35,554 bases of DNA from a virus, in the IMG/VR virus record IMGVR_UViG_3300012346_000166, positions 1 to 35,554 of that record; one strand, given 5' to 3'. Under the pieces are notes generated by a model. That model was given only the letters and a program-made list of their open reading frames with translations, made no database searches and was not told the origin of the DNA. The translations under genes and the position numbers were made by a program. Numbering within the stretch: position 1 is the first letter of the stretch; each line of letters starts with the position of its first letter. Positions 1-32,430 of the stretch are shown here, piece by piece.

Positions 1-55
1 AACTGTTTACCGTATGTTTGTTCTTTTACTTCGCCACTTTGTTCTAGGTTATGCT
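1..55. repeat. 55-nt sequence identical to the window end (35500..35554); circular-assembly overlap or terminal redundancy
   Basis: Direct comparison: nt 1-55 equal nt 35500-35554 base for base. Confidence 0.95.
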
Positions 56-818
56 CAAATATAAATGAATCATAAGCACCGAACTCATTAAGCCATTGAA
101 GCGTATTAGGTGAATAACAATAATCATTTAAGAAATAGATAGTCAGCATTTCACTACCCTCTACCGTTACAGTATAGTATGAAGCGTTTGTTAAAGTTAT
201 ACCTGCACTTGTTAGTAAATCGGTATTTAAATTGATTTGACTAATTAAAAATGACTGTGTTTCAGCGTAGAAATCTATTAAAGTGCCAGACGAATCGAAT
301 ACGTTTATTAATAACTCATTCGGTATTCCATCCGTAATAATGTTTAGGTAAAAATCTTGCTCAAACATTTGATAAATACGCTCATTTCTTGGTACGTTTG
401 TAAGATACTTTAAACCAACGTATGAACTACTTGTGTAACTCTTCCACGCTTTGTCGCTTAAACACGCTTTAAATACGTTAATCGGTGTACTTGATGCGTT
501 CGCCTGGTCTATTGGTGTTGTACCGTAGTTCTCAATTACCTTGATGTACACTTCATTTGAGTAGTTACCTTCACTATACAATGTAGTAGAACGTGTTGGA
601 ACTTGTATAAAGTCTTTAACAACACTCGAAGCGTCATAATGCGCACGTGTTGAACGCTCTAAAAATACGGTATCTTCTGCTACTTGAACACCATCTACAA
701 ACGTTTGTACTTTGTATGTAAAGTTAGCATTTGCCGTTTGATTAGAACTGAATACAAATGTAAGTGGATTGTCAGAAGGCGACCAATCTTGTGGGGTTGA
801 AATGAATGTTACTGCCAT
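1..818 (-). CDS. N-terminal part of a 372-aa junction-spanning tail-module protein (possible distal-tail-like); continues at 35499..35199
   Basis: ATG at 818..816 overlaps the stop (811..809) of the upstream gene. I read every codon from 818 down to 3 and found no stop. The frame is continuous through the 55-nt overlap with ORF 35199..35384. Confidence 0.8.
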   Translation of the reverse strand, partial: MAVTFISTPQDWSPSDNPLTFVFSSNQTANANFTYKVQTFVDGVQVAEDTVFLERSTRAHYDASSVVKDFIQVPTRSTTLYSEGNYSNEVYIKVIENYGTTPIDQANASSTPINVFKACLSDKAWKSYTSSSYVGLKYLTNVPRNERIYQMFEQDFYLNIITDGIPNELLINVFDSSGTLIDFYAETQSFLISQINLNTDLLTSAGITLTNASYYTVTVEGSEMLTIYFLNDYCYSPNTLQWLNEFGAYDSFIFEHNLEQSGEVKEQTYGKQ

Positions 819-1408
819 GGGTCAACTATTACTACTGTCATTGCTTTTTTAAATAATTTCTCTATTGGTTTACGAAGATAGTTAACTAACTTATCATTCA
901 CAACATCGGTGTAGAACGGTCTTGGTTTCTGTCCGTTCTTTGCTACCATGTACATAAGTCCTTTGTCTAGTTGGTCGTAACTACTAAACATTGGTTTGCC
1001 TGAATCGTTGGTAAATGAATTTAAGTTAATACCTACATTCATACGCCACGCACCTATTGACTCTTTAAACTCTTCACGTGTTGCTCCTGTCTTACCCCAA
1101 TTAGGTGCGCCATGATTAACTGCAAAACCATTTACACCATAGTTAACATACTTCCAATATAAAGGGGCGTATATTCCTATTGTAACAACATCACCACTAA
1201 CCTCTACTTTAGTTGGTCTAATTGACTGCCTTAAGTTATTACTTGCTCTGATATTATAGCTATCCATCGAATCGGTTAGCTGTTTTGTAACATCATTTGC
1301 AAGCGTAGTTAGTAACTGTCCAAGCGGTGAATTAGGTTGCCCTTCTACAACCGCTTTAGACGTTCCTAGATTCAAGGCGTTTAATATGTCAACTTCACTT
1401 GCCATCAC
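809..1408 (-). CDS. HK97 gp10-like head-tail joining / tail completion protein
   Basis: 199-aa ORF. Motifs RQSIRP..V..GIYAPLYWKYVNYG and ..KPRPFYTD resemble the gp10 family. It sits among tail genes. Confidence 0.5.
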   Translation of the reverse strand: MMASEVDILNALNLGTSKAVVEGQPNSPLGQLLTTLANDVTKQLTDSMDSYNIRASNNLRQSIRPTKVEVSGDVVTIGIYAPLYWKYVNYGVNGFAVNHGAPNWGKTGATREEFKESIGAWRMNVGINLNSFTNDSGKPMFSSYDQLDKGLMYMVAKNGQKPRPFYTDVVNDKLVNYLRKPIEKLFKKAMTVVIVDPWQ

Positions 1409-1430
1409 TATAATATAACAAAATCAAACG

Positions 1431-2152
1431 TTAACGACCCTTTTTACTAGCAATCTCTTTTTTGCGTTTATGAACTAAGTATTTACACTTATGATTAAAA
1501 GCAAAGATATTCATTCTAGTTACCTCATGCCATGTCATGTTAAATTCCTTGCTTACATCGTCTATTACTTCTTCCCATTGAAAGGGTTTAACTTTCTCGC
1601 TTGGGTTATTAGTATCTCCTTTTCCGTGTATCGCTTCGTTGATGTTACGAAGCGTTGCAAAAAAAAATTGGACGCTTCTAAAAATGTTGATAGTGGTAAA
1701 TGATTTTCAAATTCTTTGTAGCGGTCTTTAATAGGGTTTATTAAATTATCATAAGCATCTACTTCACCATAGATTGCACCTTTTGGATAGTACATCAAAC
1801 AAGCCATTCTTACGGGGTCGCTTTCAATATCACCATTCGACCAATCAATATGCCAACCTACACCTATCTTTTCAGGGTTTACTAGTTCATACGTTTTGCC
1901 GTTCAAAGTAATTTCTTTCGGTGGGTGTTTTACAACAGGCATTGAAGCGTATAATGTAGCAATGTGATTCGATAAGTTTGTAATATCTTTCACGTCAATA
2001 CTCATTAACTTAGCTTTCTTGATTCCTGTAAAGTCTGCTATAAACTCAACCATTAAATTCAAGTCCATTTGACCGAAATACTTATCCGTTTGAATAGGCT
2101 TTAAATGCTTAATGCGTAAATCTTTATACGTCTTTGGTAGTTTAATTTCCAT
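1431..2152 (-). CDS. Predicted -1 frameshift fusion product (about 240 aa) of the chaperone-like gene
   Basis: The -1 frame is open from 1706 to the TAA at 1433..1431. It fills the otherwise empty gap before the next gene. A slippery run and hairpin are present. Confidence 0.45.
1565..2152 (-). CDS. Tail assembly chaperone-like protein, 0-frame product (195 aa)
   Basis: 195-aa ORF. ITLNGKTYELV is a motif typical of siphovirus chaperones. The ORF contains a U9 slippery run near its 3' end. Confidence 0.45.
   Translation of the reverse strand: MEIKLPKTYKDLRIKHLKPIQTDKYFGQMDLNLMVEFIADFTGIKKAKLMSIDVKDITNLSNHIATLYASMPVVKHPPKEITLNGKTYELVNPEKIGVGWHIDWSNGDIESDPVRMACLMYYPKGAIYGEVDAYDNLINPIKDRYKEFENHLPLSTFLEASNFFLQRFVTSTKRYTEKEILITQARKLNPFNGKK
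1632..1667 (-). promoter_or_regulatory. -1 ribosomal frameshift signal: U9 run (1667..1659), spacer, 8-bp hairpin (1654..1632)
   Basis: The mRNA reads AAU UUU UUU UUG CAA, then CGCUUCGU-AACAUCA-ACGAAGCG. All 8 stem pairs were verified. Confidence 0.5.
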
Positions 2153-2762
2153 ATCTGTCTTGAATTGCTTTTATTTTAATTGCTCTTTCTTTTTGATTCG
2201 CTTGTTTACCTAGACTTTTTTGCTCTGAATGTCTACGGTATAAATATAATGTTGAAGGGCAATAACCAAGTTTAGCACCTTTTGAAAGTAAGTGCATATT
2301 TAGATCGTATTCTTCAGCGCACGTCAACGATTCATCAAACCAAACATTGAAACGTTCAAACACATCTCGTCTATACATAAGCGAACCACCATGAATTATA
2401 TTTTGATGCTTCATTTGTTTTAAGTCAGGAAATGGAACACGTGGCACATAAATATTACGTACACCATTCTCAAAGAAATTAATTGCTTTACCATGAACGA
2501 AATCGAAACCCTGTATCGCTTCAACTGAGTCAGCAAGTGAATTAGGCGTTAACATATCATCATCGCATAAGTACTTTACAAATTCACCTGTTGCAGTTTT
2601 AATACCTTCATTCAAATTATATGAAACCGATTTATCTGACTTACTTAAAATGATTTCAATATCACCACCAAAGTTTTGATTCTTTATTGATTCTATTGCT
2701 TGGTTTAAATAACCCCTATCTTTTGAATATGGAATAATTACGCTTACTTTGGTTCGTAACAT
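2142..2762 (-). CDS. Family 2 (GT-A) glycosyltransferase
   Basis: N-terminus VSVIIPYSKDRGYLNQAIESIKNQ and a DDD motif (CDDDM) are typical of GT2. Confidence 0.75.
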   Translation of the reverse strand: MLRTKVSVIIPYSKDRGYLNQAIESIKNQNFGGDIEIILSKSDKSVSYNLNEGIKTATGEFVKYLCDDDMLTPNSLADSVEAIQGFDFVHGKAINFFENGVRNIYVPRVPFPDLKQMKHQNIIHGGSLMYRRDVFERFNVWFDESLTCAEEYDLNMHLLSKGAKLGYCPSTLYLYRRHSEQKSLGKQANQKERAIKIKAIQDRYGN

Positions 2763-3280
2763 AACAAAAATACTTTAGGGGTTAACTCTTCTTTATGTGT
2801 ACAATTCCAATCACTAAACGCCTTATCAAAGTGTTCGTGTTCTAGTTTGAAAGTATGGTATTGGTCAACTTCAATGCCTATACCTGTTAGAATGATAATG
2901 TTTTTTCGTGCAATACGTTTCATATTCTCACACGCCTTATCAAAATTTCTACAATTATCTAGTACTGCAAATGCGCAAACGGTGTCGAAATCAAATTCAA
3001 AATTAGTATAATCTTCAATCGCTACTTTAATAGCATCTTCATGTATAGGAAAAGCGTCAATACCGAAATATTCAACTCCCTCATCCAAACAAGATTTAAG
3101 AAACATACTACCACAACCAACATCGAGTACTGAATTACCTACACCGCACTTTCTTAAATGCGTTCTGTAATCTCGAATAACGCTATCTAAGGCTCTATTA
3201 TCATCTGAATGACCTGCCGACTTTCTACGCTTGTTTAAATTCTTTGTAGCGTTTATCCATGTTTGTTTGTTTACTTTCAT
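2744..3280 (-). CDS. Class I SAM-dependent methyltransferase
   Basis: Motif I VLDVGCGSMFL followed by GIDAFP; 178 aa. Confidence 0.7.
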   Translation of the reverse strand: MKVNKQTWINATKNLNKRRKSAGHSDDNRALDSVIRDYRTHLRKCGVGNSVLDVGCGSMFLKSCLDEGVEYFGIDAFPIHEDAIKVAIEDYTNFEFDFDTVCAFAVLDNCRNFDKACENMKRIARKNIIILTGIGIEVDQYHTFKLEHEHFDKAFSDWNCTHKEELTPKVFLLCYEPK

Positions 3281-3411
3281 ATAGTATCGTATTTTAATCT
3301 AGTCATACAACCATATCTTTCAATACTTGATTTGATGACATACCGTTTAATACCTGTACGTTTAAACCATAGTTTTTTATACGCTTTCTTTTTCTTTCTC
3401 GGTATTCTCAT
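3277..3411 (-). CDS. Small very basic protein (44 aa, MRIPRKKKKAYKKLWFKR...)
   Basis: Below the ORF-track cutoff. ATGA overlaps at both ends (3411..3408 and 3280..3277). I read all codons and found no stop. Confidence 0.5.
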   Translation of the reverse strand: MRIPRKKKKAYKKLWFKRTGIKRYVIKSSIERYGCMTRLKYDTI

Positions 3412-4283
3412 TTCGTCAATTCTAAAATTTTATAACCTGTGCTTTCGATATTGTGATTAATATAAAAACCTGCTGGAGTTAATAACATATTTCTGTCCAC
3501 GTGTTTTAAGTCCTCTAAGATACGATAAAAACTTTCTTGGTCATTCGCTAAACTGAAATAACACGCACCGTAAACATCGTCATATACTTTCGGGTTTAAG
3601 TTTTGAGTAACTACATGACACCCTAAACCACTTGCTTCAAATGCTGTTACACCAAAACAACCATAAGGTTTGCCTTGTTGCATAGGCGCAAATAGTTCTA
3701 CGTAAACATGACATTCACTCATTCGTTTAAGTTGTTGGTCATGGCTTACTTTAGTGCGGTCTATTCGTATTTCAAAGTCATCTTTAAACTGATTTAAAAC
3801 GTATTCAATACCATCAGTACCTTTTACAAATGGATTGCTAGGATAATGACCGATTATTAGTTTCCCATCTTGGCGTTTAGGTTGGCTTATCAATGTGGTA
3901 TGTGGTGCAATGTAACTCATATTACCCAATTGAATAAACTCAGTTTGGTCAGTCAGTTGTTTATAGTCTTTGAATAACTCGTTATACATTTCATGGTTTT
4001 GCCTGTAACGTGTTCCTGAATGATAGATAACAATTCGTTTCGGCTTACCCTCTAATACGTGTTTTAAAAGTCTTTCATCACTATGAAATATCTGAACACA
4101 ATCATAACCGCCTACAATATGTTTTATGTCATGCGGTCTAATTGGAAGTGATTGTGTTGCATAGTTGAACACGTGTTTGTTAATAGAATAGTCTTTACAA
4201 TGCACGCCAATTGAACGTAACGCATTTGCATTTTCGTGACTCATGTTTGCAAAATCATCAACGGCTAAATTCAGATACCTCAT
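3408..4283 (-). CDS. GT-B fold (GT1/GT4-like) glycosyltransferase
   Basis: GCFGVTAFEASGLGCHVVT resembles the EX7E region of GT4 enzymes. I prefer the ATG at 4283 (ATGA overlap with the HNH stop) over the track start at 4325. Confidence 0.55.
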   Translation of the reverse strand: MRYLNLAVDDFANMSHENANALRSIGVHCKDYSINKHVFNYATQSLPIRPHDIKHIVGGYDCVQIFHSDERLLKHVLEGKPKRIVIYHSGTRYRQNHEMYNELFKDYKQLTDQTEFIQLGNMSYIAPHTTLISQPKRQDGKLIIGHYPSNPFVKGTDGIEYVLNQFKDDFEIRIDRTKVSHDQQLKRMSECHVYVELFAPMQQGKPYGCFGVTAFEASGLGCHVVTQNLNPKVYDDVYGACYFSLANDQESFYRILEDLKHVDRNMLLTPAGFYINHNIESTGYKILELTK

Positions 4284-4777
4284 CTTGTAGCGTTTATATA
4301 TGAAAATGGAGCTAGTGTAGGACAATTAAATATTCCTAGTTGTATTTTCTTACCTGCCATTCTGCAACACGCTCTAAATCGTCCGCTTGGTAATTTTGTA
4401 ACTCCTGTTGGTAATGTTGATTTTTTCTTTTTATCCTTAACAAGATTGTGTCTTGTGGTTATAATTTGTAAATTCTCAACTCTATTGTCAGTTGATATGT
4501 TGTTAATGTGGTCTATAATTAAACCTGAAGATTTATCATAACCTAAAAATGATTCAGCTACTAATTGATGAACGCTTCTATGTTTTATTATACCATCTTT
4601 ACATAGGATAACTCTAGGATATCTACCTCTTCCTTTTGAACTAATCTCTTTACCACTATGTGAACGAATAGAACCGTTTGCGCTTTCCCAAACTCTAGGT
4701 AAACTTATCACGTTACCAATATTTGATACCTTGTAAATACCTTCATATCCTACAACGTCTTTCCAAATTTCTTCCAT
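4280..4777 (-). CDS. Free-standing HNH homing endonuclease (NUMOD4-like N-terminus, HNH_3, AP2-like DNA-binding tail)
   Basis: EIWKDVVGYEGIYKVSNIGNV; DHINNISTDNRVENLQIITTRHN; GVTKLPSGRFRACCRMAGKKIQLGIF. Confidence 0.8.
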   Translation of the reverse strand: MEEIWKDVVGYEGIYKVSNIGNVISLPRVWESANGSIRSHSGKEISSKGRGRYPRVILCKDGIIKHRSVHQLVAESFLGYDKSSGLIIDHINNISTDNRVENLQIITTRHNLVKDKKKKSTLPTGVTKLPSGRFRACCRMAGKKIQLGIFNCPTLAPFSYINATR

Positions 4778-4822
4778 AAAATAAAGTTAAGTAAAACTTA
4801 TAAATATCGCATACCAAATAAA

Positions 4823-4830
4823 CAAAGATA
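4823..4830 (-). promoter_or_regulatory. Bacteroidota-type -7 box TATCTTTG upstream of the HNH gene
   Basis: Plus strand caaagata; lies in the 83-nt gap between terL and HNH. Confidence 0.4.
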
Positions 4831-4860
4831 TTAATAAAAGTAATATGTAAACAAGTAACC

Positions 4861-6024
4861 TCATGATGCGAAGTATTTACCTGTGTATTTCTTAGTTGTG
4901 GTAAAGAAGTATCTAATACCATCAATCGAGTGATTAAACGCATCAATCGGTTTATTAAGCGTTTGACCTGCTTTGTCTTTAGCCCACGTATAAGAACGTA
5001 ATTCTTTGATAAGATTTGTACTTCGCTTGGTTACATTAAACGGTTTCTCCTGCATTCTTTGTATTCCATACATAACAGAATCTGCTCCCTTTTCCGCACC
5101 TGTAATCTTGATGCCCGCGTTCTTTAATTCCTGAATTGATTTTGGTTCTGCTGAATCAGCATAGATATATTCACTAGTAACTCCCACTTCTTTACATAGC
5201 TTTGCAATATCTTGGTTTGTTAGTCCTGTTCGATATATCAATTCATCAAAGTAGTATTCATTATCTAGTTCATAGATTGCAGTTAATGTTGTAGGGTCGT
5301 TTGTATATCCAAAGTCCATACCGTAACCGAGTAGTTTTGCATTTGATGGAATACCATCGACTTGTTTCCAATTGTTAAACACAACCCCATCAAGGTTACC
5401 AATCAACCCAAGCCCATAAACGTTATACCAATTACGCCAAAAGTCTGAGTTTTCAGCTTTCTCTTTTGCTTTAAGAATAAAGTTCAATGCTGATTCTGGA
5501 CAGGCTTCATTATCTTGGTAGTTGATTATGAGAAAGTCCACATCGTTATCATTCATCAACTCAGTATGAAACCAAAATTCATTCGTTGGATTCCAATCGA
5601 GTATAACGCTTTGTTTTGTTCTTGATGCTAATTCAGTATAAGCGTGAAATGTCATGTTGTTAGCTTCATTCATATAAAGCCTATCACGCCTTGCACCTCT
5701 TAATTTTGAATCATTGTCTGCACTAAAAAATTCAATGTACGATCCGTTTGCAAAAGTATATTTAAAATCCGTAGCATTCCATCTTGAATCAACCCAACGA
5801 TTTGTTTCTTTCATTATCTTCTTAAAGTCCTTCATTGCACCACGCTTTAAATGCGGTACTGATTCAGCTACAATTGAAGTTTCTGTAAGTGGATGCCTTG
5901 TACAATAATCAATTTCGATAGGTAGGATGCCAAATGTTTTTCCTGCACTTGTTCCACCTTGAACGCCTTTGATAAATCTCTTTAAGGCTCGAATTTTTTT
6001 TATTGCGGTTGTGTACTTAAACAT
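4861..6024 (-). CDS. terL: Terminase large subunit (PBSX/Terminase_3-like)
   Basis: Walker A GGTSAGKTFG, LDWNP, a C-terminal nuclease-like region, and position directly after terS (TAATG overlap). Confidence 0.85.
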   Translation of the reverse strand: MFKYTTAIKKIRALKRFIKGVQGGTSAGKTFGILPIEIDYCTRHPLTETSIVAESVPHLKRGAMKDFKKIMKETNRWVDSRWNATDFKYTFANGSYIEFFSADNDSKLRGARRDRLYMNEANNMTFHAYTELASRTKQSVILDWNPTNEFWFHTELMNDNDVDFLIINYQDNEACPESALNFILKAKEKAENSDFWRNWYNVYGLGLIGNLDGVVFNNWKQVDGIPSNAKLLGYGMDFGYTNDPTTLTAIYELDNEYYFDELIYRTGLTNQDIAKLCKEVGVTSEYIYADSAEPKSIQELKNAGIKITGAEKGADSVMYGIQRMQEKPFNVTKRSTNLIKELRSYTWAKDKAGQTLNKPIDAFNHSIDGIRYFFTTTKKYTGKYFAS

Positions 6025-6437
6025 TAATCTTCGCTACCAAATAACGGTTGTTCTATTATAGTTGTTTCTGTTTGTTCTTTTAAGTTGTTTAATCGCTGTG
6101 TAATACTTGGATTGTATTGACCAACTAAACCGCCTTCGATTTGGTCTTGACGAATGATTCTTCTTATACGTGAACAGATAGTAATATAATCGTCATATCG
6201 TTTATCTTGATTATCGAAATACTGATTCACACAACAAATATTATCCTCACAATAGTTTTGGAATCCTTCAAGTGTTAAAGGTCGTTCTAGTTCTTGCCGT
6301 GCATCCATTCCATCCTTACCAACAAATACATGATTCGTTCTAGGTGTAGACTTTACTTCTTTTCTATACGCTTCGAATAACTCAAATAGTTTCTCAGGCG
6401 TTTCTATGTATTTATGCTTTGCCATGATACTCTTCAA
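6024..6437 (-). CDS. terS: Terminase small subunit
   Basis: 137 aa directly upstream of terL. PLTLEGFQNYC and the helical N-terminus are typical of small terminases. Confidence 0.55.
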   Translation of the reverse strand: MKSIMAKHKYIETPEKLFELFEAYRKEVKSTPRTNHVFVGKDGMDARQELERPLTLEGFQNYCEDNICCVNQYFDNQDKRYDDYITICSRIRRIIRQDQIEGGLVGQYNPSITQRLNNLKEQTETTIIEQPLFGSED

Positions 6438-21623: not shown

Positions 21624-23225
21624 TTAAGATAATGTTGTTCCTGTTACTGTGAATGTACGGCATCTAAAAGAAAAAGATGTACTTGTTTTACCTCTCGCAT
21701 CTATTCTGTGGTCGCTCCAAGAAACAATTGCAGAAGATGTTGATGAAGCGTAACTTGTAGATGTCCATACAACTGATAAACTTGTTATACTAAAGGGTGA
21801 ATAATTCCATGAAGTAGAAGCGCCATAATTTAAAATAGAAAATGCTTCACCAACATTTGGAATGCGCCATGTATTAAAGCCACCTACACTTAAAGCTGTT
21901 GCATTTGTTAAAGCATTAGTCCATGTTTCAAGAGGAAAAGCACCTTTATACCATCCTAAAACAGTCGATCCATCGTATGTACTCCAATCAATTACAATTC
22001 CGTTTGTATATGTTTGCGTTCCTACTTCGCTTGTAAATCTATTTGTATTTCCGAATGGATTGTTAGCGTTTAAAGTAGTGAAATTTACAAGCCTACCTAT
22101 TTCTAAATCTCCGTCGTCATTTGTTGCGTAACTTGTAGTTTGTCCTGTTTTCATAAGTTTAGCACCTACGGGAATTGTAGCACTAGCAGGTAATACAATA
22201 TCAACCTTATTCAATCCTGCGTTTGGTGTTACAGAAGTTGGTGTTACAGTCGAAGTGCCATCTGTTAATACAATGTTTAACGGTGCAGTTGCATCAATTG
22301 TAAAGTCATTTGTACCGTTTACTGTTATAGCGTTGTCTGCTACTGAATAGTTCGCAGTAGTTCCGCTTGGTATGTTTTGACTATTTATTAAACCGCCGCC
22401 TGTTTTGTTTATGTTTATAGTTGCATCAGGTGCTGAAATGTCAATATCTTTAACGCTAGGATATGCACCTGTATTTACTGTTGTTGCTAAACTGTTTTTT
22501 ACGTTTACATTCATGTCGGGTAATGTCAAACTACCTTCCGCAACAATGTTAGCTGAGTATGTAGCGTCTGAGTTTGATACTGTGGAGTTTTGAATAGTTA
22601 CGTCTAAATTTGCTGTAACATTGCCACTATACAAAGTAGTTAACGCTGTGTTTTTAATCGTATAAGTAAAGGCATCAGTAGTATAAGAATATACACCACC
22701 GCTTTCTACTGTATCAACTAATACACCGTTACGATAAATCTGTACAGGCAAACAACTTGAACCGATTACTTGGTCGAAATCGTAACCGCTCATAGGTAAA
22801 TCACAAATAGAGTTTGAATCTCTAAGCATGAAATTTACTGTCATTATATGACCTGCACAAATATCTGCTTGACTTTCGATAAACTTAGTAACACTACATG
22901 ATTCAACACGCCCCAATAATTGCCAACGTTTTGATTTATTCATAATATTGAATATGTGTCTACAATATTGCAATGTATCACTTTCAACATCATTCAAATT
23001 TGAATAGTCTGTATAAATTTTATCAGCTAAAACAATAGTAATCGGTATTGATGTTTGATTATCTAAGATTGAAGCACTTGGATAGTAAGAAGCCATTAAA
23101 GGATAATTAATAGTTTCTTCGTTTACTGCACGTGCAAAGTCACCCCAAAAGAATGTATGTAACATCAAGTGAGAACTTTGAATATCCGCTAATTCTAGCC
23201 TAAGTTGGTTAACGCTTAACTTCAT
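21624..23225 (-). CDS. Tail fibre / receptor-binding protein with a DUF1566 (Lcl C-terminal, lectin-like) domain
   Basis: KTGQTTSY..DDGDLEIGR...RFT...VIDWST...GGFNTWRIPNVGEAFSIL...WTSTS...RCRTF. Confidence 0.65.
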   Translation of the reverse strand: MKLSVNQLRLELADIQSSHLMLHTFFWGDFARAVNEETINYPLMASYYPSASILDNQTSIPITIVLADKIYTDYSNLNDVESDTLQYCRHIFNIMNKSKRWQLLGRVESCSVTKFIESQADICAGHIMTVNFMLRDSNSICDLPMSGYDFDQVIGSSCLPVQIYRNGVLVDTVESGGVYSYTTDAFTYTIKNTALTTLYSGNVTANLDVTIQNSTVSNSDATYSANIVAEGSLTLPDMNVNVKNSLATTVNTGAYPSVKDIDISAPDATININKTGGGLINSQNIPSGTTANYSVADNAITVNGTNDFTIDATAPLNIVLTDGTSTVTPTSVTPNAGLNKVDIVLPASATIPVGAKLMKTGQTTSYATNDDGDLEIGRLVNFTTLNANNPFGNTNRFTSEVGTQTYTNGIVIDWSTYDGSTVLGWYKGAFPLETWTNALTNATALSVGGFNTWRIPNVGEAFSILNYGASTSWNYSPFSITSLSVVWTSTSYASSTSSAIVSWSDHRIDARGKTSTSFSFRCRTFTVTGTTLS

Positions 23226-23728
23226 ATAAATCGAATGTTTGTTTTCGTTCTACCTTTGTCGGGTGCAATATTTTCAAATGAACATACCCAATTATAATAC
23301 TCAGGATATAACGTTTCATTATCTTTCAAGAATCCAATTAACGCTAATCTGTAAGGTTCAAAATCTTTGCGGTATTCATTGCGTAATTCAGTAGCTTCAG
23401 AAGTTCCAGCGTTCGTCATTATTTCATCACGATTTGCACCAACTGTTTTATTTCGTGTCTTGTAAATATTTGGATAGATAATCTTATAATCACAAGCTGA
23501 AGCAATGCAAGGTGCGATATAATCATTCAATAAAGTTTGTTCATCTGAATTTAGATCGTTTGCAGTAATACCTGCTAAAAGTCTTTTGTATAAACTTGTA
23601 CCAATAATAGGTTGAATAATATTATCTTGAACTCTTTGAATTGTAATCTTCAAAATACTATCTTCTACATTCTTATCAATGTAGCTGATATCTTTAACCT
23701 TTGTTGTTGTTATTAAATTTGCGTTCAT
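23222..23728 (-). CDS. Head-tail connector/adaptor-like protein
   Basis: 168 aa, helical, gp6-like pattern seen by eye. Weak assignment. Confidence 0.35.
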   Translation of the reverse strand: MNANLITTTKVKDISYIDKNVEDSILKITIQRVQDNIIQPIIGTSLYKRLLAGITANDLNSDEQTLLNDYIAPCIASACDYKIIYPNIYKTRNKTVGANRDEIMTNAGTSEATELRNEYRKDFEPYRLALIGFLKDNETLYPEYYNWVCSFENIAPDKGRTKTNIRFI

Positions 23729-23734
23729 GGTTTA

Positions 23735-24991
23735 TTAATTTAATGCTTCAATTATTACATTCATATAAGTTATAGTCACGTCCGATGCGTCTGTGTTGTT
23801 TTCTGTCCACATTTCTATGTAGTCATTTGTGGCTAAAGAAACGATTGTATGAACTGTTACTGATTCGGCACGTGAAGTTGAGTTAGTAGATACATACATT
23901 TCTGAATTAGTTATTACAGCACCATTCTTTGCAACATAAAAACCAACTTGGTCATTTGCAGAAGTCGATGTTACAGAAATAGTTGTTGTAACTTTAAAAC
24001 TTCTAGTAATCGCACCTACATAAGTCGCTCTATTATTAGTATGTGTAAACTTTTGATTGATACTATTTGCAGTAGTAGTTCCTGCTATCTTTAATGGTGT
24101 TGCACTTGAAATAACATTTGTTACAGTCGTATTGTTCAACATATAATAATTAGCCAATTCTGCTGAATTATTAATGCCTTTACAGTTTACAAATAACGCT
24201 TTGTTATCTGTGTACTGAACTCCTGTGTTATAAGTACCGCCACCACCAAAATTCACAGTATCTAATATGTAACTTTCTACGGGGATTGTAGCACTTGTAG
24301 AAACGTTTAACGATGTTTCACCACTCAATGTAACGAATGAACTGTAAATGATTCTAAAACGTCTTGAAACAGTACAAATCGAAGCAATAGTTAAAGCTGT
24401 AGTTCCTGAATAGTTATCAAATAAGCATTGAGAAAATCCAATAGTTCCGATAGTTCCATCAAATGTTAAACCGCCACTATTCAAAAAGGCACTATCAGCC
24501 ATGATGAAGTTTGAATAGTCTTTAATTGTACCAACCGTTGGGCAATCCGTAAAGTTTACACCAAACCAATCTAATGCCGTTGTAGTTCCATCACCATCTA
24601 AGTTCAATGCTACGTTTGCCTCAATTGTTATGTTTCGAATAGGCAAAGAATAGTTAGAAGTTATTAAAGCCGTACCTGTTAAACCTGTTGATTTAATACG
24701 GCAATTTTCAGAACTACCACCGATAATAGTAGTATTCACGCCACCAACTAAACGACTTCCATTTAAGTCAACAATAGACGTTATGAAGTAAGTAACGTTA
24801 TCAGCTAAAGTAATAACACCACTTACTGCGGTAGGTAAATCTGAAACACTAGCAACGAATACAACATCACCACTATCCAATCCACTACCACCAAGAAAGA
24901 TATCACCACTACCAAGAATAGTCGAACCATTGATAGTCTTTATATTACTACCGCTAGTTAGTTTATCTTGTATGTATCTTCTTTGGCTCAT
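23735..24991 (-). CDS. Thr/Ser/Asn-rich beta-helix-like tail fibre or spike protein
   Basis: 418 aa with repetitive short beta-strand-like segments and a G-rich N-terminus. Confidence 0.4.
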   Translation of the reverse strand: MSQRRYIQDKLTSGSNIKTINGSTILGSGDIFLGGSGLDSGDVVFVASVSDLPTAVSGVITLADNVTYFITSIVDLNGSRLVGGVNTTIIGGSSENCRIKSTGLTGTALITSNYSLPIRNITIEANVALNLDGDGTTTALDWFGVNFTDCPTVGTIKDYSNFIMADSAFLNSGGLTFDGTIGTIGFSQCLFDNYSGTTALTIASICTVSRRFRIIYSSFVTLSGETSLNVSTSATIPVESYILDTVNFGGGGTYNTGVQYTDNKALFVNCKGINNSAELANYYMLNNTTVTNVISSATPLKIAGTTTANSINQKFTHTNNRATYVGAITRSFKVTTTISVTSTSANDQVGFYVAKNGAVITNSEMYVSTNSTSRAESVTVHTIVSLATNDYIEMWTENNTDASDVTITYMNVIIEALN

Positions 24992-29982: not shown

Positions 29983-32064
29983 TTATCCGACCGTAGCAAT
30001 ACTTAATGTATTAGCTGTTTGGTTTTGTTTTGCTGTGATTTCTGAATCAACTACAAAGACTTTTCCTGCATTTGATTTAGGTGCTTCATTTCCTATTCCA
30101 CTTGTTAAAGTTGTTTGAGCGTTTGCAAGTTGTGGATTTGGAATGTTAGGTGCTGTTGTTGGTGGGCTAACTGAACCACCTCCAGCACTACCTACACCAC
30201 CACCACCACCACCGTACTGAGTACTAGCAATTTTAGCAATGTTAGCCGATGAAGTAATAGCCGCCGCACCTGCATACACCGCCGCAGTTGCAGGACCTAA
30301 TAATGGGATAGGGTTTTGCATACCGTTTCTAAATGCGGCAATAGTTGTCTGAATACCATCAATAGTTGCAGTAGCTAAACTTAAAGCCTTAGCAACTTTG
30401 AATTGTCGTCTTGCTCTTTGGTCTTTACTCTTTTCATCTTGTGCCCCAAAACGATTAGCAACTGCGAACACACCCTCGGCTAAATCATTTAAAGACTTAG
30501 CACCCATTTGTGCAATCTGAACTTTTGCATCGTTTAGCTTTCTATGGTCTTCTAGTATTTGAGCGTTTGTTTCTTGTTCTGATTTGATTCGGTTACTAAG
30601 TATTAAAGCGTCTGCGGCTTCTTTATCCCATTGTAATTGTTGTGCTTGTTCGTCCTTTAATGCTTGTGCTTCTTTTGCTAGTGTTTCTTGTTCAGCTTTC
30701 CACGCTTCTTCGTCTAATAACATTTGACGTTCAGCATCTTGCTTAGATTTATAAGCATCTAGTTCTTGTTGGTTTTTATCCTTTTGAATTTCGATTGCTT
30801 TATCCGCTTCTGCTTTTGCTTCATCGCTTCTTTCTTTAGCAAGGTCTTTCTTTTCCTGATTAAGTTTTGCTTCTGCTACTTCAATCGTATTAAGTGAATC
30901 CTCAGCCGCTGAAACCATATCTTGAAACGATTGTTCAAATATTTCGTTTCCTTGCATTCGACCTTTCATGTACTTCGCAAATGCTACGTTTGCTTCTGCT
31001 TCTTGCTTTTGAAGTTTGATTTTTTCTTCACGCAATGCAATAGTACTTTTCCCTTCAGCTTCTAGTAACGCAATTTTTCTATCAATGCCTTTAATATTTT
31101 CTTCACGTGCTTTTGCTTCTTCATCTAATTGGCGAATATGCTTTTCATGGTTTTCAGCTTGTACTGCACTTGCTTTTCTACTTGCTTCTGTTGTACCTGT
31201 AAATAGATCGTATAACTTTTGCAACGATTTAATAGTAATCGTAATTGGAAAAAACGCAACCTCTAAAGCTGTCTTAATTACCTTACTTGCTTCTGGGTAT
31301 TTATTAGCAAATGACTTGTAAGCATCTTGAAACTTAGCACTAACTTCTGTGGCTTTAGTTTTCAGTTTATCAAAGTTCGCTACTACTGCACCTAAAGCAA
31401 CAATAAACAAACCAATACCTGTTGACGCTAAGGCAATCTTAAATAACTTCATTGCACCTGTTGACGTACCAACCACCGTAGCATAAGCACCTGTTGCCGT
31501 TGTAAGTAACCAAGTTTGTAAAGTCTTAGCCTTTTGCATCAAGAATGATTCCTTTTCTAAAGCCCCACGTATTTCTTCAAGTGATGCCAAAACAGCTTGA
31601 ACGGCTTGCAACTTAACAAGTGATTTAGTAAGGTTTTCATTCTCTTGACCTAATAACGCTTGAACTCCCGTTAACGCACCGTAACCCGCTGTTATTGTAG
31701 AACCTAATTGAAGTGCCGCTTTCATTCTAGCACCATCAGTACCGAGGTTATTAATCTCAGTCTTTAAGTCGCCTAACTTATCTTTTAATTCCCCCGCACG
31801 TTGTAACGCTTCTTTACCTATTGGACTTTCTCGACCTGCTTGTAGTGCGATTGTTTGGTATTGCTTAATAGCTTGCGTACTTTCACGCATTGACATCGTA
31901 CCACTTTCAACACGTTTATTAAGGTCATCAAAGGTTTTATTTAAGTCATTACTAGTATTCTTAGTAGTGCCATCAATGTTCTTTAATTCCTTATCAATTG
32001 CTTGTAAATCGTTTGCAGTTGTACCCGTGTCGACTGAGGTCTTAAAAATTATTTCTTCTGCCAT
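29983..32064 (-). CDS. Tape-measure-like protein (coiled coils, central hydrophobic segments, Gly-rich C-terminus)
   Basis: 693 aa. TM-like TGIGLFIVALGAVVA, long heptad regions, GGGGGGVGSAGGG. Confidence 0.5.
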   Translation of the reverse strand: MAEEIIFKTSVDTGTTANDLQAIDKELKNIDGTTKNTSNDLNKTFDDLNKRVESGTMSMRESTQAIKQYQTIALQAGRESPIGKEALQRAGELKDKLGDLKTEINNLGTDGARMKAALQLGSTITAGYGALTGVQALLGQENENLTKSLVKLQAVQAVLASLEEIRGALEKESFLMQKAKTLQTWLLTTATGAYATVVGTSTGAMKLFKIALASTGIGLFIVALGAVVANFDKLKTKATEVSAKFQDAYKSFANKYPEASKVIKTALEVAFFPITITIKSLQKLYDLFTGTTEASRKASAVQAENHEKHIRQLDEEAKAREENIKGIDRKIALLEAEGKSTIALREEKIKLQKQEAEANVAFAKYMKGRMQGNEIFEQSFQDMVSAAEDSLNTIEVAEAKLNQEKKDLAKERSDEAKAEADKAIEIQKDKNQQELDAYKSKQDAERQMLLDEEAWKAEQETLAKEAQALKDEQAQQLQWDKEAADALILSNRIKSEQETNAQILEDHRKLNDAKVQIAQMGAKSLNDLAEGVFAVANRFGAQDEKSKDQRARRQFKVAKALSLATATIDGIQTTIAAFRNGMQNPIPLLGPATAAVYAGAAAITSSANIAKIASTQYGGGGGGVGSAGGGSVSPPTTAPNIPNPQLANAQTTLTSGIGNEAPKSNAGKVFVVDSEITAKQNQTANTLSIATVG

Positions 32065-32087
32065 GTGTTTTGTATTGAATTATTTAA

Positions 32088-32095
32088 TACGTTTG
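32088..32095 (+). promoter_or_regulatory. -7 box TACGTTTG on the plus strand, upstream of the lipoprotein gene
   Basis: 23 nt before the ATG at 32119; TTTG at 32069..32072. Confidence 0.4.
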
Positions 32096-32118
32096 TATTA
32101 TAAACAAATAAATTAATT

Positions 32119-32430
32119 ATGAAAAAGGTATTGTTATTATCAGTTATTGCTTTGGCATCTTGTAGAAAATTCAAATTTGAAAATAAAATACAAGGTACAT
32201 GGCAAATGAAAGAAATCAAATTACATGACCAAAGTGTTTGGTTTAACGTTCCATCAAATGAACAAGCGGTTACCATTACAAAAGATAGCGTTTCGAATCC
32301 TTGGAGCGATAAGTATATGATTGTAGACAAACATACAATTGTAATAAACAACACTTTTATAGATGTTGACATCAAAAAAAATAGTATGTTGTGGGTTTCC
32401 AATGGTGATTCGATTAAATTTGTACGTTAA
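32119..32430 (+). CDS. Lipoprotein (lipocalin-like), the only plus-strand gene; candidate superinfection-exclusion or receptor-masking moron
   Basis: Signal peptide MKKVLLLSVIALASC with lipobox LASC; GTWQMKEI motif. Its stop overlaps the stop of the convergent fibre-tip gene. Confidence 0.7.
   Translation: MKKVLLLSVIALASCRKFKFENKIQGTWQMKEIKLHDQSVWFNVPSNEQAVTITKDSVSNPWSDKYMIVDKHTIVINNTFIDVDIKKNSMLWVSNGDSIKFVR

Follow-up and report, generated by a model that had tools for sequence, protein, structure and literature searches.

A conserved nine-T run as a candidate programmed recoding site in a phage gene that follows TerL

Programmed frameshifts in phage morphogenesis genes are already known, and so is transcriptional slippage at 9-nt runs. 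In 2004 Xu, Hendrix and Duda reportedly described the -1 ribosomal frameshift of gpG/gpGT of phage lambda and of other tail assembly chaperones. In lambda-like chaperones the short form coats the tape-measure protein and the extension binds the tube protein, neither form being part of the virion. Phage T7 gene 10A/10B and SPP1 gp17.1/17.1* are structural proteins with a minor frameshift-extended isoform, and the T7 10B and SPP1 gp17.1* extensions are dispensable and lineage-specific. The slippage run of Shigella mxiE is 9 nt long. Thermus dnaX is another gene in which polymerase slippage is used productively (PMC5009743). Here we analyzed a stretch of viral DNA of 35,554 nt (IMG/VR record IMGVR_UViG_3300012346_000166; this whole stretch is called the window), in which a minus-strand gene, termed gene X, carries a run of nine T's (T9) together with a long open -1 frame. 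On the comparative evidence given below, the recoding of gene X is judged to be real and old, with the site, both frames and the long product under selection. What appears new is the gene family and its position, a strict T9 that lacks a conserved structure, a long dual-coding overlap, and a recoding that went unnoticed even in isolate genomes; no description of it was found in the literature searched.

As in lambda gpG/gpGT, a gene of the morphogenesis region yields a short and a C-terminally extended product through a -1 shift, and the arrangement is kept despite divergence. Unlike gpG/gpGT, gene X follows TerL and precedes a gp10-like neck gene, and its shift occurs 31 codons before the 0-frame stop, which results in a long overlap (up to ~80 codons in the second family described below, family B). 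In place of a heptamer it has a strict T9, some of its lineages encode the long form only, and it has no profile match or significant fold match to chaperone families. With T7 10A/10B and SPP1 gp17.1/17.1* gene X shares two isoforms of a phage morphogenesis protein that differ at the C-terminus, but here it is the extended form that appears to be the conserved one, and the short form the addition. The likeness to Thermus thermophilus dnaX and Shigella mxiE lies in a nine-base A/T run within the coding sequence that requires no RNA structure (PMC5009743), and in one extra transcript base leading to an alternative C-terminus. Those are, however, cellular replication or regulatory genes, whereas gene X belongs to a phage virion module, has two conserved tails, and its slippage is predicted.

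The elements of the site, all on the minus strand of the window, are the following.

1565..2152 (-): gene X 0-frame open reading frame (ORF), 195 aa, with the N-terminal domain (residues 1-~177) and a 31-codon alternative basic tail (ORF list and sequence)
1659..1667 (-): T9 (U9) slip run, in phase AAT TTT TTT TTG (direct reading)
1431..1667 (-): -1 frame extension, FFF plus 75 codons plus TAA at 1433..1431 (translation)
1565..1658 (-): dual-coding overlap of the 0-frame tail (LQRFVTSTKRYTEKEILITQARKLNPFNGKK, then the stop) with the variable -1 linker
1434..1577 (-): conserved C-terminal helical domain of the long isoform, WEEVIDDVSKEFNMTWHEVTRMNIFAFNHKCKYLVHKRKKEIASKKGR (alignment and AlphaFold2 (AF2) model)
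1632..1654 (-): stem-loop CGCTTCGT-AACATCA-ACGAAGCG, 8 bp, specific to the window's clade

The mRNA around the run reads TCC AAT TTT TTT TTG CAA, and the heptamer U_UUU_UUU (1667..1661) lies in 0-frame phase, i.e., it has the X_XXY_YYZ form. The stem-loop starts 4 nt past the T9 run and 6 nt past the first heptamer. The first-pass annotation of the window had reported this ORF, the U9 run, the hairpin, the -1 frame and a 156-nt gap, and on direct reading of the minus strand all of them were found where it had placed them. The two predicted isoforms have the same 164-residue N-terminal part. The fused product, for which one extra U has to be read or inserted, is of 240 aa with the junction ...EASNFFFATLRNINEA..., and the predicted junction peptides are ...LEASNFFFATLR for the long form and ...LEASNFFLQR for the short form. 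Between 1706 and the TAA at 1433..1431 no stop interrupts the -1 frame (92 codons), and this frame fills the 156 nt that separate the 0-frame stop of gene X from the next gene (start at 1408). Across the -1 frames of 36 window genes we counted 0.128 stops per codon (one per 7.8 codons), the longest other open stretch being 52 codons. At this stop rate the chance of 92 open -1 codons is ~3e-6 per position; the improbability claimed for this frame is thus borne out, and the frame is not a product of chance. Furthermore, T9 is the only homopolymer of at least 9 bases in the 35.5-kb window.

We then analyzed the relatives of gene X. The closer ones, family A, comprise 54 IMG/VR loci, with uniqueness judged by a 149-nt region. 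A search with the fused protein gave 53 homologues, nearly all of 195-216 aa (the 0-frame product) with FFL at the site; one protein of 244 aa (P0018) matched the -1 extension in frame, and its contig (L001) reads T10. The run was exactly T9 in 45 of the 46 unique loci, in the same phase, at 38-96% aa identity, and the window shares T9 with three independent assemblies of 96% identity. When run-length variants of this exact phage were sought, a metagenome pattern scan gave no match, and the viral collection gave three known contigs, all with T9. A profile search of 1.84 billion representatives matched the gene X family to 284 clusters at 50% identity, and 173 of 191 near-full-length members had been called with FFL at the site in frame 0. 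A single extension sequence searched by itself gave no match in the database, and the extension profile matched only a few short -1 ORF calls.

The -1 frame of family A is open over 76-90 codons, whereas the +1 frame closes within 2-9 codons. In the family alignment the extension consists of a variable charged linker, a conserved domain of ~45 residues (consensus WEEvIDxIAKEFxxxDWxxVTdxNIYtFNHRxxFLtHKxKK, in which W and N are invariant) and a basic end. Past the 0-frame stop, substitutions at codon positions 1/2/3 of the -1 frame were 0.36/0.26/0.56, as compared with 0.38/0.29/0.60 in the N-terminal domain, and in the overlap this periodicity was damped (0.44/0.41/0.54). The likeness to the N-terminal domain argues that the extension is translated, and the substitutions past the 0-frame stop are of the coding type, in agreement with the earlier proposal that the -1 frame fills the 156-nt gap. 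Synonymous recoding of the -1 frame leaves the 0-frame tail open for a median of 12 codons, as compared with 33-54 in the actual sequences, which lends moderate support to the short tail being kept by selection as well. The AF2 model of the 240-aa form (predicted local distance difference test, pLDDT, 83.3) has a confident N-terminal domain, followed by a disordered linker (residues 178-192) and three helices.

A search of BFVD with this model matched many uncharacterized phage proteins, among them I6R9M9 of Nonlabens phage P12024S, which led to the second family. Families A and B are ~13% identical; the alignment of the two fused family alignments by hhalign gave 97.5% probability and an E-value of 6.5e-12 over 233 columns that covered both domains, and FFF aligned with FFL. 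The match runs across the slip site, which is therefore taken to be homologous and ancient. For family B, 63 relatives were fetched, which gave 43 unique sequences; 42 of these carry exactly T9, and the remaining one has T10 through a substitution that preserves the frames. Their -1 ORF is of 82-94 codons, the 0 frame runs on for up to ~80 codons, and the +1 frame closes after 5. Hence, the -1 ORF is open over 76-94 codons in the related phages of both families. The heptamer U_UUU_UUU is in phase in family B too; the codon phase of the run is nevertheless offset by one nucleotide (xxT TTT TTT TTG in family A versus xTT TTT TTT TAT in family B), and the run length stays at nine in both despite this offset.

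Phage P12024S (NC_018271, 35.7 kb) is a cultured siphophage whose genome architecture matches that of the window. Its gp38 follows TerL directly and contains CTT TTT TTT TAT, i.e., T9, and the -1 ORF extends to 23830, its end being annotated separately as gp39 (locus 23136..23830). In RefSeq the recoded gene is thus given as two hypothetical ones, gp38 (175 aa) and gp39 (55 aa), phage P12024L is arranged likewise, and the two parts stand in separate PHROGs (phrog_32199 and phrog_38404), both of 'unknown function'. The T9 run, the -1 extension, the synteny TerL-X-neck and a similar genome size are common to gp38+gp39 and gene X; the differences are the ~13% identity, the run that is one nucleotide out of phase, and the annotation as two unrelated hypothetical genes. 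The 0-frame tail is short in P12024S (28 codons from the run), as opposed to far longer in most of family B, and the predicted junction peptides are ...CILFFLSFR and ...CILFFYHLGNDL... T9 is thereby present in two finished isolate genomes. About 12 nt past T9, the family-B loci (L060-L121) have ATCATTTAGGNA, which is almost invariant in nucleotides though the proteins are 25-57% identical; dual coding (YHLGND over LSFRxR) probably explains this invariance, a sequence-specific role in slippage being the alternative.

Lineages without the run are informative about the need for it. Five of them (P0087, P0107, P0128, P0129 and P0164) encode the long form as one ORF. The residues at the aligned site are VFA in P0107, KFQ in P0128, HFA in P0129 and KYA in P0164, and P0087 has TTT TTC TTT. 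The protein thus needs only the middle aromatic residue at this site. In addition, the first T of the run falls at the third position of six different codons and is synonymous in each. Residues of the xFA type in the run-less lineages, together with this synonymy, indicate selection on all nine T's at the nucleotide level. Four of the five soon reach a stop in the alternative frame, so that across lineages T9 with an open alternative tail frame covaries against a single fused ORF without the run, and the run is never shorter than nine in 89 unique two-frame relatives. The same extension is found fused in these lineages, and we conclude from this that the long protein is real and probably indispensable; the long form is possibly ancestral, and the short form appears to be the addition. 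The main proposals of the first-pass annotation are sustained by these data: gene X is recoded at U9 into the -1 frame, as T9 and the open -1 frame are kept in two families, and the 240-aa fusion corresponds to a real product, because the same sequence is in frame in P0018, P0087, P0107, P0128, P0129 and P0164. The contig of P0107 (L123) has no run and a single ORF, and its alternative frame nevertheless continues for 39 codons, up to a final ...GKN before the stop. The likeness of this end to the short-form tail would fit a recent loss of the run.

The first-pass annotation had described the site as a complete cassette that includes the hairpin, and this part was not sustained: the hairpin is found only in the closest clade of the window and is missing from the other T9-bearing relatives of both families. 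By itself the window hairpin has -11.4 kcal/mol; in a 66-nt context the value is -12.7 kcal/mol with z = -1.68, and 10 of 200 shuffles fold equally well, which makes the hairpin marginal when taken alone. The element is limited to the window and L002-L005, i.e., the three 96%-identical relatives and the 78%-identical L002 (z from -2.1 to -3.8), and in the other T9-bearing clades of family A none was found, with z near 0. Within the 23 nt of the element L002 carries three substitutions relative to the window: two lie in the loop, and the third, A to G, forms a U.G pair. Compensatory double changes are absent; the changes seen would fit a maintained structure, and dual coding would explain them equally well. 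No structure was detected in the 45-nt windows upstream of the run in either family (mean z +0.7 and +0.5), nor in the downstream windows of family B (mean z +0.5). Slippage assisted by a terminator or an upstream hairpin was rejected, since no hairpin or terminator-like site precedes the run. Judged by this distribution, the hairpin stands outside the conserved signal and is no conserved stimulator; it is possible that it acts as a local enhancer of ribosomal slippage in the clade of the window.

With even confidence we propose that T9 is a conserved programmed recoding site from which the long form is produced mainly by polymerase slippage, with ribosomal -1 slippage adding to it. The host RNA polymerase would slip on the nine-base homopolymer, so that a share of the transcripts has U10; these would be translated normally into the 240-aa form, with its flexible linker and three-helix basic domain, while unaltered U9 mRNA would be read in frame 0 into the 195-aa form with its short basic tail. 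Ribosomal -1 slippage on U_UUU_UUU would contribute, and in the clade of the window the hairpin may boost this ribosomal part. Transcriptional slippage, which the first-pass annotation had listed as an alternative, is now the slightly favored mechanism, with ribosomal slippage a close rival or co-contributor. The preference is given because nine T's are kept, not seven, because there is no conserved stimulatory structure, and because polymerase slippage on T9 is known. The minimal heptamer accounts for seven T's only, and the two T's outside it lie at different places in the two families; the flanking phenylalanines are dispensable, and therefore T8-T9 are not required by the protein. The run is at least nine bases long, about the length of the RNA-DNA hybrid, and its length is independent of codon phase and of protein need, as is characteristic of transcriptional slippage. 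In vivo, runs of 9 A or T cause highly efficient slippage of bacterial RNA polymerase, whose RNA-DNA hybrid is of 9-10 bp (PMC5009743), so that a T9 template should yield U10 transcripts in any case. For E. coli ribosomes U_UUU_UUU and U_UUU_UUA are much less shift-prone than A_AAA_AAG (PMC5009743). The slipping machine, the isoform ratio and a role of the protein in neck or tail assembly are what we infer from these comparisons. To the proposal that T9 is a long-kept transcriptional-slippage site across at least 284 clusters and the Nonlabens-type family, at which the polymerase sets the ratio of isoforms whose alternative C-termini share a dual-coding overlap of 30-80 codons, we give slightly less than an even chance. 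If it is true, this is to our knowledge the first conserved productive polymerase slippage in the morphogenesis of a double-stranded DNA phage.

Several points weigh against a leading part for the polymerase. A downstream hairpin can aid a ribosome but not a polymerase that has yet to transcribe it, and the clade of the window has a stem-loop at canonical spacing in which the three substitutions of L002 are all structure-compatible. Every T9 holds an in-phase U_UUU_UUU, so that the ribosome may suffice where the phage requires the long form at no more than a few per cent. Because of their shared phylogeny the sequences are less independent than the counts suggest; the choice between polymerase and ribosome is itself a reading of comparative evidence, and we know of no slippage rates for a Bacteroidota RNA polymerase. 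A purely ribosomal origin, in which tRNA-Phe pairs slip on U_UUU_UUU (or U_UUU_UUG) under stimulation by the hairpin, and the relatives shift unstimulated at low efficiency, is accordingly a plausible if less probable explanation. It accommodates the heptamer in phase in both families, the canonical geometry of the -11.4 kcal/mol hairpin and the loop or U.G nature of the L002 changes, and -1 frameshifting has a precedent in phage tail chaperone genes (PMC5009743). It leaves the absence of the hairpin from all other family-A clades and from family B, and its z of only -1.68, to be accounted for, as well as the maintenance of nine T's, two of them placed differently per family and unneeded by the protein. 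Furthermore, E. coli ribosomes shift comparatively poorly on U_UUU_UUU, and polymerase slippage is expected on a T9 template regardless (PMC5009743).

The remaining explanations fare worse against the same data. Phase variation at the DNA level, i.e., replication slippage between T9 and T10 that leaves a population with a mixture of short-form and long-form genotypes, would fit the T10 of L001/P0018 and L129/P0193, whose alternative tail frames remain open (35 and 63 codons); it is improbable, since T9 is present in ~87 of 89 unique assemblies, errors of assembly or sequencing account for the rare T10 contigs just as well, and the run-less lineages retain the long form, which implies that it is needed in every infection. 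That the run is a homopolymer error (true T10 and one ORF), as had also been considered, or that gene X is a frameshifted pseudogene, can be taken as effectively refuted: homopolymers are error-prone and one close-family contig (L001) does read T10, but the window and three independent assemblies at 96% identity agree on T9, as do dozens of diverged ones and the two isolate genomes, the 0-frame tail is open well past expectation, and the calls with FFL in frame 0 are the large majority. Equally remote is the proposal of two separate genes, in which the -1 ORF would be translated from an internal start. An ATG is present at 1538, gene callers sometimes give short ORFs there (P0054-P0057), and Nonlabens gp39 is annotated in this manner; nevertheless, the conservation of the -1 frame starts at the run (FFFAxxRxINEAIHGK), there is no conserved start codon, and the extension is covalently fused in the run-less lineages.

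With regard to function, the position of gene X is constant (after TerL and before the gp10-like neck gene), and this position together with the two isoforms points to a role in virion assembly, within the morphogenesis module. The first-pass annotation had likened the gene to gpG/gpGT, and what stands of this is two products with a common N-terminus, the longer one via the -1 frame, with the fusion confirmed by in-frame relatives. No profile match or significant fold match to a chaperone was obtained, the position differs and the short form is not constant, and the likeness remains an analogy. Pfam and PHROG scans with the window protein and 21 diverse fused members, as well as PDB sequence searches, gave no family for gene X, and the parts of the gene, proposed as candidates for a chaperone-family match, gave none in the Pfam/PHROG profile scans; one of the 21 fused members matched Phage_TAC_7 at E 0.088, which is the chance level for 21 scans. 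A PDB fold search with the AF2 model gave nothing below E 3.6, and the significant fold matches in BFVD were all to uncharacterized proteins, four named chaperones appearing only at E 0.12-0.5. Five lineages encode the long form only, so that the two forms are not always co-encoded. As had been noted from the start, gene X does not lie between tube and tape-measure genes, being five genes upstream of the 693-aa tape-measure-like gene, and the order is the same in the Nonlabens phage. It is, on the other hand, the sole recoded gene in a genome with a tape-measure-like protein but no G/GT pair beside that gene. Membership of a tail assembly chaperone family is not supported, and the chance of a chaperone-like role is put at roughly one in three.

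Three other candidates were rejected. Gene X is not TerS, which lies at 6024..6437. A canonical chaperone pair upstream of the tape-measure-like gene was discarded, as the 117-aa minus-strand ORF at 32049..32402 is no gene, the plus strand there encoding a lipoprotein. Finally, gp10 of Flavobacterium phage 6H, a weak fold match, was set aside for its run of only T6 and its inconsistent frames. In phage 6H (L059, NC_021867; 10044..10927, minus strand) there is an unannotated 305-nt gap after gp10, and the -1 frame gives a helical segment (...TPLWEILIRMYDITKRSLDEEAAYKK) that is reminiscent of the gene X extension, although the run there reaches T6 only and the -1 frame is interrupted by a stop. 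The locus could represent a separate recoding event, a site in decay or an error in the sequence.

If polymerase slippage operates here, it may replace the canonical G/GT tail-chaperone frameshift in these phages, and if gene X proves to be a tail chaperone, the 'universal' G/GT rule would extend to another gene position and another slippage mechanism. Gene callers and reference records split or truncate gene X, and almost all database entries give the short form, so that an entire family of proteins of marine and freshwater phages is wrongly described. The family also offers a clean natural comparison of polymerase and ribosomal slippage, which the cultured pair of P12024S and Nonlabens makes testable.

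The window is probably a nearly complete, circularly permuted phage genome of ~35.5 kb, judged from its synteny with a 96%-identical contig (L003, 10001..20585), in which the genes past the homologue of 809..1408 (374, 759, 175, 693, 360, 324 and 176 aa) match the right end of the window; the 374-aa gene probably has its two parts at opposite ends of the window. All window genes are on the minus strand except a lone plus-strand gene at 32119..32430. The neighborhood of gene X is as follows.

6437..6024 (-): TerS (phrog_606, E 1e-11)
4861..6024 (-): TerL (tblastn, 56% identity to Flavobacterium phage TerL)
2142..4777 (-): insert block between TerL and gene X, with an HNH gene, a 305-aa ORF, a SAM methyltransferase and a family-2 glycosyltransferase (Pfam)
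809..1408 (-): HK97-gp10-like / tail-completion (Neck1) protein (Pfam PF04883, E 0.014; phrog_5, E 1.9e-4)
29983..32064, five genes downstream of gene X: 693-aa tape-measure-like protein (phrog_9483, E 9e-10)

The gp10-like gene, the downstream neighbor of gene X, is the first gene of the neck/tail module, and it is followed in the order of transcription by a 374-aa gene, a 753-aa gene, a 169-aa gene, the opposite-strand lipoprotein gene and the 693-aa protein, after which come the prohead protease, the capsid protein and the portal. The same neighbor is found in L001, L002, L125, L127 and the Nonlabens phage (gp42). In the basic architecture gene X lies directly after TerL, as seen in the Nonlabens phage and in L125, which retains the synteny TerL-X-194aa-373aa. 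The closest cultured TerL proteins are those of Flavobacterium psychrophilum phages (56% identity), whose genomes are without gene X. Against 50,697 phage records, megablast of 1..6100 and tblastn with the fused protein gave no match in cultured phages, and a scan of 185,579 genomes gave no prophage or host relative. For phages with these genes, the sole cultured hosts or nearest cultured relatives are Flavobacteriia.

Some minor observations concern the neighboring genes. On the sense strand near the 5′ end of the TerL gene there is an A8 run (5994..6001), the second-longest sense-strand homopolymer within a gene and one base under the length for efficient slippage. The set of genes inserted between TerL and gene X varies: L001 has three glycosyltransferase-type genes, one of them rhamnosyltransferase-like, and the Nonlabens phage and L125 have none, so that the interval looks like a variable cargo slot. 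A 103-aa protein that begins with a lipoprotein-type signal (MKKVLLLSVIALASC...) is the product of the plus-strand gene at 32119..32430, which lies immediately upstream of the tape-measure-like gene; this gene may serve in superinfection exclusion or have some other accessory (moron) role. L001 carries a reverse-strand gene of similar size at a different place.

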